From NCBI GenBank assembly GCA_030149205.1, contig JASBSB010000006.1, positions 540,001-572,000 on the forward strand: a DNA stretch of 32,000 nucleotides. The letters are read 5' to 3'. The position numbers were made by a program, and so were the translations under genes. Positions 25,654 through 32,000 of the stretch are shown here, piece after piece; the stretch's first letter is position 1, and every line of letters begins with the position of its first letter. The notes under the pieces are model-generated. The model was given only the letters and a program-made list of their open reading frames with translations. It ran no database searches and was not told the DNA's origin. The DNA comes from Candidatus Heimdallarchaeota archaeon. Lineage in GTDB: Archaea; Asgardarchaeota; Heimdallarchaeia; Heimdallarchaeales; Kariarchaeaceae.

Positions 25654-26649
25654 ATGGACACAAGACAACTCTTGACGCGAGGAGCAACTATAGTAATTGA
25701 TCCCCAACAGATAAGAATGACACCAGATGAATACCTGGCAGCCTATGGTTCGTATATGGACACAGTCTGTTTAGTCGCAAAATCTCAGGCGGGAACAACT
25801 TACTACCCAAGTAACTCTGCACCAAGAGATGAGGATTATGGTCAATTCTTTTCATCTTTTGCACAAATTGCCACAGACATAGGAATTAAGGTCTACGCAA
25901 TGTTTCATTCAACACATGACAAATATTTTTCCAAAAATCCAAATTTCCAGCTTGTGAATAACGGAGGAGAACCTGTCCCTGGATGGGTATGCCCTTCACG
26001 GGAGAATTATTGGTTGTATTTGGCGGAATTGTGTGCAGAAGTTGCTGAGTTTCCTATTGAAGGTATTATCCTGACAGACCTGGCTTATCCAAGAGAAACC
26101 ACCTGCTTTTGTGAAAGTTGTAGAAGGGTTTTTTCACAACGAAATAACATGGATAGAGACTTCTCACTAGAAAGATTACAGAGAAATGATACTTTGTTTC
26201 ACAAATGGTTAACCTTCCGAACCAATTCCGTAAATAAGTTAATTTCAACAGTTGTCAACAGGGTACATCAGATCAAAAAAATTGATGTACTCCCTGAACT
26301 CCTATTAGATCTACAGACCGGGCTTTTAGAAGGTTCATTACGCCATTTCGGACAGGATTACAACAGTATCAGACAGGTCACTTCACACATACTCATTCAT
26401 TTATTCCCTTGGTCTCCATTCCCAAGTACGGAAGAAGAAATAAATATGCTCTCTGAAACTTTGGGTGAATTTGCTGAACATACGGAAACTACAAAAACTT
26501 CATTATACATCTGGGATATCACGGATACAAAATTCAACTTTGCACAAAGCATCAAAACCAACCTGAACTCAAAAGAAATTTTTGTGCTTGAGGAAGAACC
26601 TATAGACTTTCTTGATAGAAGATCATTATATCTTGGTCTTGGTGTTTAG
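25654..26649 (+). CDS. Glycoside-hydrolase-like TIM-barrel protein (GHL10/GH42-like) with CxCxxC cluster
   Basis: WVCPSRENYWLYLAELCAEVAEFPIEGIILTDLAYP followed by CFCESCRRVF, then WLTFRTNSV; no signal peptide. Confidence 0.65.
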   Translation: MDTRQLLTRGATIVIDPQQIRMTPDEYLAAYGSYMDTVCLVAKSQAGTTYYPSNSAPRDEDYGQFFSSFAQIATDIGIKVYAMFHSTHDKYFSKNPNFQLVNNGGEPVPGWVCPSRENYWLYLAELCAEVAEFPIEGIILTDLAYPRETTCFCESCRRVFSQRNNMDRDFSLERLQRNDTLFHKWLTFRTNSVNKLISTVVNRVHQIKKIDVLPELLLDLQTGLLEGSLRHFGQDYNSIRQVTSHILIHLFPWSPFPSTEEEINMLSETLGEFAEHTETTKTSLYIWDITDTKFNFAQSIKTNLNSKEIFVLEEEPIDFLDRRSLYLGLGV

Positions 26650-27814: not shown

Positions 27815-28566
27815 CTAATGAATATTGACCTTCAATTCTTTCGAAATCCGTATCCATTCCACGTATCGTTTAATCCCCTCAGCTAAGCTTACCTCGGGAA
27901 CCCATCCAAGCGAGGAGAGTTTTGTTATATCTAGATTCATATAACGCACATCCCCCTTCCAACCTCTTTCCCCACCTGTGTATATACGCTTCACTTTATC
28001 CTCACCAAACAATTCAACGATGAGCAGATTTGCAATATCATCCACTGTGTAAGTCTTTGGAAAAGCCATATTGAATGCTTCAAACTTTGACGAATTTCGC
28101 GAACCTGCGGTTAGGAATCCCTTAACACAATCATCAATATAAAGATAGGATTAATTTCTGGTTCCCCATATACGGTTCCTCCAGAGGCTGCAAATATAAC
28201 ATCTGAAATGTCTTGAGACCTTGCAAACTCAAGCATTTTCATTGAACCAACCACATTCTGCATAAAGTCAAAGTATGGTTTATTTACAGATATTTTAACA
28301 TCTGGTTGAGCTGCAAGGTGAACAAGGACATCATATTTGAATTCACTTACCTCCTTTCCCATATCTCCAGTGATATCAAGGTTATAATATTTTATCACAT
28401 CTTGCTCCAGATGATCTTTAATGTATCGGGTATCAGTATGTGCACTTTGATTGTCAACAATTACTAAATTTGAGACCCCTAAATCTAGTAGTTTGTCGAT
28501 CATATGGGAACCGATAAACCCTAATCCCCCAGATAAGAACACAGACTTGTTCTTAAAATAATTCAT
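27815..28566 (-). pseudogene. NAD-dependent epimerase/dehydratase (extended SDR, GalE-like), disrupted by an internal deletion with frameshift
   Basis: The 5' part from ATG 28566 has SGGLGFIGSH, HLAAQPDV and ASGGTVYGEPEINP, then runs out of frame. The 3' part, in another frame from 28150, reads SYLYIDDCVKG...AFNM...GWKGDVRYMNLDITKL..LGWVPEVSL. The intervening YxxxK catalytic segment is absent. Confidence 0.9.
27883..27906. repeat. 24-bp direct repeat, copy 2 (inside the epimerase 3' end)
   Basis: See 26814..26837. Confidence 0.85.
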
Positions 28567-28721
28567 ATGTTTATATGTAAAAAATTTTTTCGAAAAAAGT
28601 ATTAGTATTATCAAACATAGTTTTTATAAAAAGAACATTTATATATTGAATTTTTATTCATTTGGTTAACAAAAATTTCACACAAAAAAAATAAATTAAA
28701 TTGTTTTTAGAGATTTATAAG

Positions 28722-29591
28722 ATGGTGATTTTTTTTCAATGGTATTTATTAATATCCCTACTCCTTTTCCCATTATTCACAATTGCCTGGTATTTCAAAG
28801 TTAAATGGAGATCGTTTTCTGCCACTCCATTTAGTATAAAATTAAATATTTCTGAAATTAAGCTTAATGTCCCAATATATGGTCGTTTTTGGAAGTTTTT
28901 CGGAGATTTATCTTTTCGTATTTTTCGGAATTTGTCTATGTATCTGTTGATTTTTTTTGTTGTATGTGTTGGATTGTTAGATCTATTGAATAAATCCAAT
29001 GTTAACAATATAATTATGCAAGTTGTTCCATTGAATTTGGTCTTTTGGATAGTAATTTTGATAATTTTCATCCTATCACTCTTAATTCATGAAATCTCTC
29101 ATGTTTTGGTTGGATCAGTAAACGGCATTAAACCTACACACATCCATTTTATTTTCACACCACTTATACCAATATTTGGTTTGGCAATTGAATTTAAAGA
29201 CCCAGTCAAAGAGTTAGTAATAAAACATTATGATCTGTTAGAAGATTCGGATTTCAAAAACCTAACATATGATGAATTTTCTGTTTTGAAAAATTACCCA
29301 ACGAAACTAAACCAACTTGGTGCAATTTCAAGTGTAGGAGTTTTCTCAAATTTGATAATTTTTTTAATAGGCTGGATGTTTGCTACCACACATTTCGTAT
29401 TTCTGTTCATTGCGTTAATAAATGGGATAATTACCTTACTTAACTTATTACCCATCTATATTGTTGATGGATCTTCAATACTCAGATACTCAACATCTTT
29501 AAAAGGAGATGAAAATTTAATGAATCGATTAGAATGGTTAATCTATTTTATGACTATGTTAATCATAATTTTTTATCTTATGCCAAAGTAA
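28722..29591 (+). CDS. M50-family (site-2 protease) intramembrane zinc metalloprotease, catalytic motifs intact, no PDZ domain
   Basis: HEISH (29088-29102), ISSVGVFSN and NLLPIYIVDG (from 29442). The N-terminal PFSIKL...RFWKFFGD resembles archaeal/eukaryotic S2P. The ATG at 28722 is preferred. Confidence 0.88.
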   Translation: MVIFFQWYLLISLLLFPLFTIAWYFKVKWRSFSATPFSIKLNISEIKLNVPIYGRFWKFFGDLSFRIFRNLSMYLLIFFVVCVGLLDLLNKSNVNNIIMQVVPLNLVFWIVILIIFILSLLIHEISHVLVGSVNGIKPTHIHFIFTPLIPIFGLAIEFKDPVKELVIKHYDLLEDSDFKNLTYDEFSVLKNYPTKLNQLGAISSVGVFSNLIIFLIGWMFATTHFVFLFIALINGIITLLNLLPIYIVDGSSILRYSTSLKGDENLMNRLEWLIYFMTMLIIIFYLMPK

Positions 29592-29611: not shown

Positions 29612-30817
29612 TCATCTTACACGTAAAGTTATTGCTTTAGAATTATCTCCTAATCTCCACACCATAAATTGTTTATTCCTTTCACTCATTGTTTCAAATT
29701 CAATTGGTAGCTGGAAAACAACACTAAAAATCCATTGAAACTTAATTTCCAGCTGATTTTGAGACTGATAGAAAAATGAGGTGCCGAAAAGGTATGTGAG
29801 CCGAGATAATATAATTTCTTTGAATGCTTTGATTGCCATTATAAAAATATACAAAAATAGTGCAAGGAAGATAAGTGCAGTGATATAAGTAAGGAAATGA
29901 TTCGCCTTTATAAACATAGAATAAATAATCAGTGACAATAGAATCATTATTATGCTTACGAACCCAAATCTCAATATCAATTCAATAATTATGTAACTTG
30001 TTATTCTAATCTTTGGAATTACAACTCTTGAAATGATTTTGTCAGATTTGTTAAAACTTTCTACCTTTAAGACTTGGAAAGGCTCATAGATTCTTCCATT
30101 TTTAAAAAGTGTTGTACTTTCAAAAATAACCTGTTTCATCGGAAATATTTGTGATAGGAGGTTATATGTTCTTATCCCTTTAAACCATATTGGGATTAAA
30201 ATTAAATCAGTTTTTATTCCTTCTTCAACAAAAAATAAATTGTGAAATTTTTGTTCGTATACCCAAATAATGTTGAATGAAACTATATTCCTAGAAACAT
30301 ATATTTTTGACCCTTTTTTTAATTCATACCTTACCTTAAACTCACGTCTCCAAAGAAATTTATGTGTGGCATTTATTTGCAAACTATCTTCCTTATCTTT
30401 GATTGACAATAAACTTTCATAAGGTTCTTGAGCAATTATAAGTACAAGAAAACTAAAATAAGATCCACTAATACTAAAAGTAATGAATGAGAAGGACAGA
30501 TACAATGACCTGTTGACCAACAAGATGCCAATCACAATAATAGTCCCCAATAGCCCTCCATAACCCACCGCAAACTTATGTGAATAAAAACCCAAACCTG
30601 TTAAAGTATTAGGAAGAAAAAATAATATTAATAAGAACAGTAGTAAATTAAGAATAATCATTGAAATTTGCCAGTTTAGGTCTGTTAGGTTTAAAAATTG
30701 ATCTAATGCATATAATCCAGCACTTAAAGCTCCTAAATAAACTATAATTATAAACGACAGTAAAGAAACATGAAATGAATACCCTCTAAATAACTGAATT
30801 TTTTTTATTGTATCCAT
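29612..30817 (-). CDS. Hypothetical polytopic membrane protein (4 TM, soluble domain, 2 TM, soluble tail)
   Basis: 401-aa ORF; hydrophobicity pattern read by eye; no family recognised. Confidence 0.75.
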   Translation of the reverse strand: MDTIKKIQLFRGYSFHVSLLSFIIIVYLGALSAGLYALDQFLNLTDLNWQISMIILNLLLFLLILFFLPNTLTGLGFYSHKFAVGYGGLLGTIIVIGILLVNRSLYLSFSFITFSISGSYFSFLVLIIAQEPYESLLSIKDKEDSLQINATHKFLWRREFKVRYELKKGSKIYVSRNIVSFNIIWVYEQKFHNLFFVEEGIKTDLILIPIWFKGIRTYNLLSQIFPMKQVIFESTTLFKNGRIYEPFQVLKVESFNKSDKIISRVVIPKIRITSYIIIELILRFGFVSIIMILLSLIIYSMFIKANHFLTYITALIFLALFLYIFIMAIKAFKEIILSRLTYLFGTSFFYQSQNQLEIKFQWIFSVVFQLPIEFETMSERNKQFMVWRLGDNSKAITLRVR

Positions 30818-30857
30818 TTTTCCTATCTTTGAAATTTTATAGAACTTCTAATAAAAT

Positions 30858-30874
30858 TATTGTTTTAGGGGTGA
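30858..30874. repeat. Direct repeat TATTGnnTTAGGGG(G)TGA, copy 1
   Basis: TATTGTTTTAGGGGTGA here and TATTGAATTAGGGGGTGA at 31327..31344; G-rich in otherwise very AT-rich intergenic DNA. Confidence 0.6.
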
Positions 30875-31075
30875 ATAGTAGGAGGTTATCTCTCATTTAA
30901 GTGAATCAACATCTTTTTGTAGCCTATACCAAGGAGAAATGTAAGGGTGGAACAAATTTTGAATTTATAAAAAATTGCTTAATCAAATTTTGAAATTTTA
31001 GATTCTCTGATTTTTAGTTTTTAAATTCTGATATATTCTGATAAATTTTGAAACTTTTTTAATCTTAACAAATAT

Positions 31076-31228
31076 ATGTCATTATGGGAGATACTAGGTT
31101 GGGGTGCTTTAATAGTTGCTCTTGGTGCATTGGTGATAGCTTCAGCCCCTGTACAAGTAAATCCAGCAGTAAGTCTTATTTTTTGGATACTCTGGACGTA
31201 TGGTTTAGGTCAAGACCTATCTGATTGA
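31076..31228 (+). CDS. Unannotated 50-aa hydrophobic peptide (below the ORF-track cutoff)
   Basis: ATG 31076 to TGA 31228 gives MSLWEILGWGALIVALGALVIASAPVQVNPAVSLIFWILWTYGLGQDLSD. It is visibly more GC-rich than both flanks, fills the gap between two genes, and has two hydrophobic helices separated by a PVQVNP turn. Confidence 0.7.
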   Translation: MSLWEILGWGALIVALGALVIASAPVQVNPAVSLIFWILWTYGLGQDLSD

Positions 31229-31326
31229 CCCTAATCATTTTTATTACAATCGCAAATATAATTTTAGTTTAGCATACTATAACTAATTAATGAAAAAAAG
31301 GATTTTTGACATAAACTTAATTCGGA

Positions 31327-31344
31327 TATTGAATTAGGGGGTGA
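31327..31344. repeat. Direct repeat TATTGnnTTAGGGG(G)TGA, copy 2
   Basis: See 30858..30874; offset 469 bp. Confidence 0.6.
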
Positions 31345-31365
31345 GGACTAAAAGAATTTAGATTT

Positions 31366-31998
31366 TCATCCATTCTCAGTTTCTTTTAAAATTCTAGCAT
31401 ATTTCATAATATCAGCAGCGGCATTTCCCCACTCTTGTGTGTCCGCTGTTCCCTGATAAAATAAAACGATAGAATTTGCAAATGCGAATAAACCGGCTAG
31501 AGACCAGATGAAGGTAAGACTAAAAGCAATTAAAGTCAAAATCAAGCTGAATAATAGTCCTGAGCTAGAAACAGCACCTAATTGAAAAACCACGGATGGA
31601 TAATTCACAAGAAGGGATGACTCATCTTTTATTGGGTTTTTACTTTGATAATTTTCAGATAGACCATAGTGTTTTATCATCAAAGGTCTGACAATTTCCT
31701 TAAAAGATATGGTTGTCAAGAAGATTGGAAAAATTGGAACAATAAGGATCTTTAGTTCCTTGGTTTGTATGCCATTGGATAGGGCAAACAATAATTTACC
31801 AAGATCATGGCAGAATGAAGAGAAAAACAGAAAAAAAATAAAATAGATAAGGAAGGGTGATCCAAGGGGGTTAAGAAATTCCTGTAATTTGTCTGCGAAC
31901 CTTAAAATGAAGACTATGATAGCTCCTGATACAGCAAATAGTACAAGAGTAACTGACAACACATTATGTTTTAAAATTTTAAAGGACAGATTTCCAAT
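31366..31998 (-). CDS. Degenerate M50-like paralog (pseudo-protease); 5'-partial (frame is open to the window edge)
   Basis: Aligns with 28722..29591 (IGNLSFKI vs FGDLSFRI; KHYGLSE...KN...DE.S.L.NYP....QLGAVSS.G). HExxH is replaced by HDLGK (31795-31809) and NxxPxxxxDG is absent. Confidence 0.8.
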   Translation of the reverse strand: MGNLSFKILKHNVLSVTLVLFAVSGAIIVFILRFADKLQEFLNPLGSPFLIYFIFFLFFSSFCHDLGKLLFALSNGIQTKELKILIVPIFPIFLTTISFKEIVRPLMIKHYGLSENYQSKNPIKDESSLLVNYPSVVFQLGAVSSSGLLFSLILTLIAFSLTFIWSLAGLFAFANSIVLFYQGTADTQEWGNAAADIMKYARILKETENG

Positions 31999-32000
31999 TG

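Follow-up and report, generated by a model that had tools for sequence, protein, structure and literature searches.

pep50, a 50-codon open reading frame (ORF) at positions 31076–31228 on the forward strand (ATG start, TGA stop included), is probably a real small membrane-protein gene, one that automated gene calling probably missed and that is new to annotation. It lies near the end of the window, the 32,000-nucleotide stretch that we analysed (C2:540001–572000), in a genome of 3.3 Mb on 12 contigs with 35% GC and an estimated completeness of 93.5%. The genome is archaeal: the nearest named relatives of its RadA-like gene are Candidatus Heimdallarchaeota metagenome-assembled genomes. Judged from their sequences, ORFs just downstream of the window are presumably aRF1-like, PCNA-like and RadA-like. 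The reading we favour is that pep50 is a lineage-restricted, missed gene whose product forms a membrane hairpin and serves a larger membrane protein as an accessory subunit or modulator. We put the probability of this statement as a whole at roughly 55%. Expression, topology, partner and role are what we infer for pep50 from the evidence below.

Small membrane proteins are routinely missed in archaeal annotation, and pep50 is a probable one recovered from sequence statistics alone, namely its codon periodicity, the sharp changes of GC at its ends and a promoter-like element at the distance typical of leaderless genes in this genome. At present pep50 is of value as an annotation with good support and as a lead open to experiment, drawn from one orphan gene in one metagenome-assembled genome.

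Coding evidence for pep50

pep50 is alone in a 548-nt spacer, with an in-frame TGA eight codons 5' of its ATG and no alternative start. Since 13% of dinucleotide shuffles of this spacer contain an ATG-initiated ORF of at least 50 codons, the length of pep50 is by itself compatible with chance. Over the same stretch, frames +2, −1 and −2 carry one stop each. Both observations speak for a non-functional frame in a rearranging locus, which would be either a chance ORF of the spacer or what remains, still open, of a decayed membrane-protein gene. So does the fact that gene callers skipped pep50. We find this explanation rather doubtful in view of the codon usage, base composition and upstream sequence of pep50.

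With a codon score trained on 1,381 long ORFs, pep50 reaches 0.238, which is the median for 50-codon windows taken in the true frame. Of the off-frame and antisense windows, 98–99.7% score lower. On the opposite strand, the frame aligned with the codons scores equally high, yet it has seven stops. GC contents at the three codon positions of pep50 are 0.55, 0.45 and 0.24, a difference between first and third positions of 0.32. Random ORFs matched in composition show 0.02±0.10 (P(≥0.32) ~0.0007). A GC3 of 0.24 is the level of the neighbouring genes, and hence the extra GC of pep50 is found at the first two codon positions, where it reflects the choice of amino acids. Overall GC is 0.41 within pep50 and 0.23 and 0.25 in its flanks, stepping up at 31070–31080 and down at ~31220. 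These steps coincide with the start and stop codons.

The encoded composition is also unusual. Among random open frames with the base composition of pep50, a lack of Lys, Arg and His has a probability of 0.0016, four or more Trp one of 0.03 and a mean hydropathy of at least 1.16 one of 0.054. None of 200,000 random frames combined the hydropathy, the lack of basic residues and the codon periodicity of pep50. These composition statistics are partly correlated and were picked post hoc, and so amount to roughly one strong line of evidence. When 325 ATG-initiated ORFs of 45–90 aa outside long ORFs are ranked, the codon score of pep50 falls at the 82nd percentile, its GC contrast at the 98.5th and its hydropathy at the 97th, and pep50 alone exceeds all three thresholds together. 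Where pep50 is rich in Gly, Ala and Trp, the small hydrophobic ORFs elsewhere in the genome are rich in Phe, Ile, Leu and Cys.

Two other uses of the same DNA were considered and rejected. An overlapping 46-aa Cys-rich ORF (31084–31224) has a codon score of −0.14 to −0.15, and a structured RNA is not indicated on either strand (z of +0.3 and +0.5; no Rfam match). Neither a tRNA nor an antisense signal was detected at the locus.

Upstream of pep50 is a BRE/TATA-like element at 31039–31054 on the forward strand (−37 to −22 from the ATG) with the core ATAAATTTTGAAA (31041–31053). A start-codon-anchored profile of 850 genes with free upstream DNA shows A at −35 to −31, T at −29 to −27 and A at −26 to −23, a BRE/TATA-like signal at the spacing that widespread leaderless transcription would give. 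With a promoter matrix rebuilt from 800 genes with free upstream DNA, a matrix of low information content, the pep50 site scores 2.42 bits. This is higher than 91.5% of those 800 genes, and just 0.67% of 10,363 intergenic ATGs reach that score. The promoter is a line of evidence independent of the composition of pep50. Only 14% of the long ORFs in the genome have a Shine–Dalgarno core, so its absence at pep50 is normal here. Together with the genome's upstream profile, this suggests that leaderless mRNAs are common in this Heimdall-type archaeon. The position of the putative promoter in turn implies that the pep50 mRNA would be leaderless or nearly so.

Ten nucleotides past the stop codon, the sequence reads as a run of five T residues (31238–31242, forward strand), a possible archaeal oligo-T terminator, although such a run carries little information in AT-rich DNA. 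No hairpin-type terminator follows pep50 in a scan for bacterial-type promoters and terminators, which is uninformative for an archaeon. Most likely, pep50 would be transcribed alone from the BRE/TATA-like element ~26 nt 5' of its ATG, and its transcript may end at the T run.

The joint composition, the sharp GC boundaries and the well-placed promoter-like site make a chance ORF difficult to accept. For a remnant, the periodicity is less telling, because a recently decayed fragment would retain it; a remnant nevertheless requires that an ATG and a stop fall precisely at the ends of the coding-like stretch.

Predicted hairpin and search for relatives

The pep50 product contains nine Leu, six Ala, five each of Ile, Gly and Val, four each of Ser and Trp, two each of Pro, Gln and Asp, and one each of Met, Glu, Asn, Phe, Thr and Tyr. 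Gly and Ala together thus number 11 and Trp makes up 8% of the residues. There is no Lys, Arg or His, and the three acidic residues (Glu5, Asp47 and Asp50) give a net charge of about −3. An earlier, sequence-only reading had described a 50-aa peptide with four Trp, three acidic residues, no basic residue and a PVQVNP turn, and a count of the composition agrees with it in every respect. The turn runs from Pro25 through VQVN to Pro30. The N terminus, MSLWE, leads straight into helix 1 and the C terminus is DLSD.

AlphaFold2, run on the single sequence, predicts helices at residues 3–23, 30–41 and 44–49, with a loop at 24–29 (mean pLDDT 81.4). This model is consistent with the two helices and intervening turn proposed from the sequence, although helix 2, at ~12–15 residues, is short for a full membrane span. 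A Foldseek comparison of the model with the PDB returned no match. Small residues recur along helix 1 (Gly8, Gly10, Ala11, Ala15, Gly17, Ala18, Ala22 and Ala24) and are followed by Pro25 and Asn29–Pro30. Read from the sequence, Gly8, Ala11, Ala15, Ala18 and Ala22 share one face of the helix. In the absence of basic residues the positive-inside rule yields no topology.

Nothing in pep50 resembles a hydrophilic leader, a double-glycine motif or a recognisable cleavage, recognition or export motif. Helix 1 ends in Ala-Ser-Ala followed by Pro, and the N-terminal region is acidic rather than basic. A Pro in the +1 position is unfavourable for type I signal peptidase.

The pep50 region is not an assembly artefact, since an independent Logan assembly of the source run, at 76x depth, is identical over positions 30500–31700. 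Of the public runs, just one contains the locus, a sediment DNA metagenome that is probably the source. Contigs of three sequencing runs, searched at 80% likeness, contained no second strain.

We found no second copy of pep50 in its own genome. Six-frame searches of 60 relatives and of 400 genomes of the phylum gave matches at chance level only, the best in the phylum being an off-frame of an AAA ATPase gene. A word-index search of 5.8 billion proteins returned nothing, not even pep50 itself. phmmer searches of 1.84 billion protein representatives gave two marginal matches, to an fn3-repeat protein and to a 2,011-aa protein, both due to chance. Exact eight-residue pattern scans of metagenome, species-genome and viral contigs were blank, and the ESM Atlas was likewise negative (best score 0.78). 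Protein collections are blind to small ORFs that were not called, so that the searches that count are the six-frame ones over ~400 phylum genomes and the exact eight-residue patterns elsewhere. The sequence-only reading had looked to homologues with a preserved frame as a check on the gene. None came to light in the genome itself, the ~400 phylum genomes, the 1.84 billion representatives or the contig pattern scans. On these searches pep50 appears to be a lineage-restricted orphan.

The lack of a homologue in the databases and genomes searched is what a non-functional frame would also show. On the other hand, no longer relative containing the pep50 segment was found of the kind a remnant implies, the phmmer search giving only chance fn3-repeat matches, and pep50 is dissimilar to its neighbours and to the rest of the genome. 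The idea that pep50 derives from a transmembrane segment of a neighbour, by fragmentation or duplication, or belongs to a repeat element was rejected: local alignments show nothing significant, and the spacer has no second copy in the genome.

The description of pep50 as an uncalled, Trp-rich, acidic, two-helix membrane peptide is thus backed by its composition, codon periodicity, promoter-like element and predicted fold. That it was unannotated is backed indirectly: neighbours on the same contig (P0003 and P0004) are present in the protein collection and pep50 is absent, which indicates that gene callers did not call it.

Neighbouring genes and possible roles

Three genes lie around pep50. 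M50a (28701–29591, forward strand) encodes a divergent 296-aa intramembrane metalloprotease of the M50, or site-2, type that matches Pfam PF02163 (E 9.3e-10) and has intact HEISH and NLLPIYIVDG motifs. It has no RRE or PDZ domain and is absent from 60 relatives. Next comes mem401 (29612–30817, reverse strand), which encodes a 401-aa polytopic membrane protein and diverges from pep50 across a 258-nt spacer. mem401 belongs to no Pfam, NCBIfam, PADLOC or PHROG family, was not found in five close relatives, and its AlphaFold2 model is unusable (pLDDT 41.6). In the word-index search of the 5.8-billion-protein collection, mem401 and M50a each return only themselves, and neither has a match in viral or metagenome contigs.

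On the other side, M50b converges on pep50 across a 137-nt spacer. It lies on the reverse strand from 31366 to the window end at 32000 and beyond, the whole gene being C2:571366–572199, and encodes a 277-aa paralogue of M50a (32% identity, tblastn E 7e-27). In M50b, HDLGK replaces HExxH and the NxxPxxxxDG motif is lost; its Pfam match reaches just 14.7 bits. M50b is nevertheless full-length, and both proteins keep an N-terminal TPFSIKL motif and an IKHY...NYP...QLGA insert, so that M50b is likely a pseudo-protease. An alignment of the two searched against 400 phylum genomes finds only canonical PDZ-type S2P genes (E ~1e-4). Three further M50 (PF02163) genes lie elsewhere in the genome (C4:661555–662391, C4:750711–751460 and C2:317127–317513), and hence the M50a/M50b pair represents extra copies. 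M50a, M50b, mem401 and pep50 occur only in this genome among those searched.

With strands that alternate (+ − + −), these genes are separate transcription units and not an operon. The locus that contains them is rearranged. A GHL-like gene (25654–26649), which is inverted here, and the RadA-like gene (C2:572847–574145) are co-oriented and 6.2 kb apart, whereas in three genomes of the same genus (82–89% complete) they are divergent neighbours separated by a few hundred bases. The different order in these congeners points to an inversion together with gain of the segment bearing mem244, a broken epimerase, M50a, mem401, pep50 and M50b. The rearranged locus and the broken epimerase are both in keeping with a frame that is non-functional. 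Foreign origin of the segment, considered on account of low GC, was rejected because the low GC of the neighbours lies in codon positions 1 and 2, reflecting amino-acid content, and not in GC3.

The epimerase gene itself, an NAD-dependent epimerase/dehydratase on the reverse strand (27815–28614), is split into a 167-aa N-terminal ORF (28111–28614) and an 84-aa C-terminal ORF (27815–28069). Its Pfam match covers only profile positions 1 to ~139 of ~330, and the gene seems to be a pseudogene carrying either an internal deletion or a frameshift.

In the accessory-subunit reading that we favour, the product of pep50 would be a 50-residue helical hairpin in the membrane. The small-residue stripe of helix 1 (residues 3–24) would suit tight helix packing, the PVQVNP turn would follow, and helix 2 would be short and aromatic-rich. 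Such an arrangement would place both acidic ends and both Trp clusters on the same membrane face. Rather than serving as an exported precursor, pep50 would assist a larger membrane protein as a small subunit or modulate its activity. The likeliest partners are mem401, with which it has a common promoter region, the M50a protease or the M50b pseudo-protease. This role is favoured by the small-residue packing face, by the lack of a leader and of a cleavage or export signal, and by the lack of export or maturation genes. No transporter, modifying enzyme or immunity gene of known type is present in the 6.2-kb segment (C2:566650–572846). The link between pep50 and its neighbours is one of position only, across alternating strands. 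Co-folding of M50a (alignment A1) with pep50 gave a score of 0.01 (mark 0.32), which speaks neither for binding nor against it.

Precedent exists for a very small regulatory subunit of an S2P-type enzyme. BofA of Bacillus subtilis, which is 87 aa long, is likewise small, has two hydrophobic segments and works with an M50-family intramembrane protease. A transmembrane segment of BofA occupies and blocks the active-site cleft of the M50 protease SpoIVFB (PMC9042235). The systems differ in that BofA acts with SpoIVFA in sporulating Firmicutes whereas pep50 comes from an Asgard archaeon, and pep50 is no member of the BofA family, having no Pfam match at E ≤ 0.1. Small membrane proteins such as hairpin proteolipids, KdpF, AcrZ and CydX provide a broader parallel. 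They are shorter than 60 aa, are missed by gene callers, have one or two transmembrane helices with small-residue packing faces and act by binding larger membrane proteins. None is homologous to pep50, whose complete lack of basic residues and 8% Trp are unusual even in this company. If pep50 truly works with the active and dead M50 pair, it would offer a first handle on the regulation or the targets of intramembrane proteases in Asgard archaea.

The sequence-only reading had preferred a precursor peptide or protease substrate. In that case the adjacent active M50a would cut pep50 in the membrane, either at the PVQVNP turn or in or next to helix 1, which is rich in Gly and Ala. The cut would free a short, hydrophobic, anionic peptide that serves as a signal or an archaeocin, with M50b as a catalytically dead regulator or immunity partner. 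S2P substrates carry helix-destabilising features such as Asn-Pro. A small-residue helix followed by Asn-Pro is of this type, so that helix 1 of pep50 does have the trait predicted for a substrate, a transmembrane helix with helix-destabilising or small residues, by a permissive criterion that many transmembrane helices pass. The gene content points the same way: M50a, with its motifs intact, is 1.5 kb from pep50 and the degenerate M50b 137 nt away, the pair is extra to three other M50 genes, and all four genes are confined to this genome among those searched. There is also a precedent in the daptides, where an S2P-type leader peptidase is encoded beside small hydrophobic peptides (10.1101/2023.03.08.531785).

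Several features nevertheless make a precursor or substrate unlikely. The genes alternate in strand, pep50 has neither a hydrophilic leader nor a recognisable cleavage or recognition motif, M50a has no RRE or PDZ domain, and genes for a known type of transporter, modifying enzyme or immunity function do not accompany them. Moreover, there is a single peptide gene where daptide clusters have a mean of 2.3, and the other M50 genes of the genome have no comparable small ORF beside them. A small regulatory membrane subunit is, in our analysis, at least as likely as a precursor or substrate. Equally improbable to our minds is a private intramembrane-proteolysis module of this Asgard archaeon with pep50 as its dedicated substrate or released product. 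It would comprise an active M50 protease, a dead M50 paralogue and mem401, all found in one genome among those searched. If true, it would be a peptide-processing system of a kind not yet described in archaea, and its product would be an anionic, Trp-rich peptide that acts on membranes or as a signal.

Membership of the daptides themselves was rejected. Daptide precursors (MpaA) are short, aliphatic-rich, helical peptides encoded beside the RRE-fused site-2 protease MpaP that processes them, and the class is defined by an invariant C-terminal Thr, an ELExMEAP leader, an RRE-fused S2P, a decarboxylase, an aminotransferase and a methyltransferase (10.1101/2023.03.08.531785). pep50 is likewise short, aliphatic-rich, helical and next to an M50/S2P gene, and the sole NCBIfam match of M50a is the daptide protease model NF041824. 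This match reaches only 21.6 bits against a cut-off of 300, however, and M50a lacks an RRE. pep50 ends in Asp instead of the invariant Thr and has no ELExMEAP leader, there is one peptide gene, and C2:566650–572846 contains no decarboxylase, aminotransferase, methyltransferase or ABC transporter.

Known bacteriocins fit no better. Subgroup II circular bacteriocins of the gassericin A type, to which pep50 had been likened, are similarly hydrophobic, helical and not cationic, and measure ~58–70 aa after leader removal. They are accompanied by a DUF95/SpoIIM-type membrane protein and an ATPase, neither of which is among the neighbours of pep50. The likeness does not extend to family membership, as pep50 has no Pfam or NCBIfam family at E ≤ 0.1 and none of M50a, mem401, M50b, mem244 and the broken epimerase matches a DUF95 or ABC family. 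Leaderless, Trp-rich bacteriocins such as lacticin Q and aureocin A53 share with pep50 a length of ~50 aa, several Trp and a helical structure. They are strongly cationic and Lys-rich, and pep50 was rejected as a member of this class for its want of Lys, Arg and His, its three acidic residues and its lack of a Pfam match.

This likeness in size, leaderless sequence and Trp content, together with the monocistronic setting, is what commends the idea that pep50 is a self-standing membrane-active peptide, resembling a type I toxin or a leaderless bacteriocin and unrelated to its neighbours. We consider it highly unlikely. A net charge of about −3 with no basic residue contrasts with the cationic leaderless bacteriocins and most type I toxins, Pfam bacteriocin or toxin families and PADLOC gave no match, no structured RNA or antisense signal was detected, and no transporter or immunity gene is nearby.

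Further motifs and gene copies

Two more GC bumps (0.37–0.43) occur in the same spacers, at 30860–30940 and 31320–31345. Each holds a GGGGTGA-like motif resembling a Shine–Dalgarno sequence (TAGGGGTGAATAGTAGGAGG and TAGGGGGTGAGG), and neither is followed by a convincing ORF.

A weak paralogue of mem401 (402 aa, 24% identity) lies on another contig at C1:65370–66578 (L037:2371–3576), flanked by an apparent transporter gene and a 337-aa ORF. No M50 gene or similar small hydrophobic ORF is found beside it.

The spacer that pep50 has in common with the divergent mem401 contains two further copies of CAAATTTTGAA(A/T)TTTA on the forward strand (30953–31000), which belong to direct-repeat families D4 and D17. 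The 11-mer AAATTTTGAAA occurs four times in the window against 0.47 expected, and several copies of TTTGAA(A/T)NTTT or AAATTTTGAAA lie at 30829–31057, within this 258-nt divergent spacer. These repeated motifs may be tandem or extra promoters, or operator sites.
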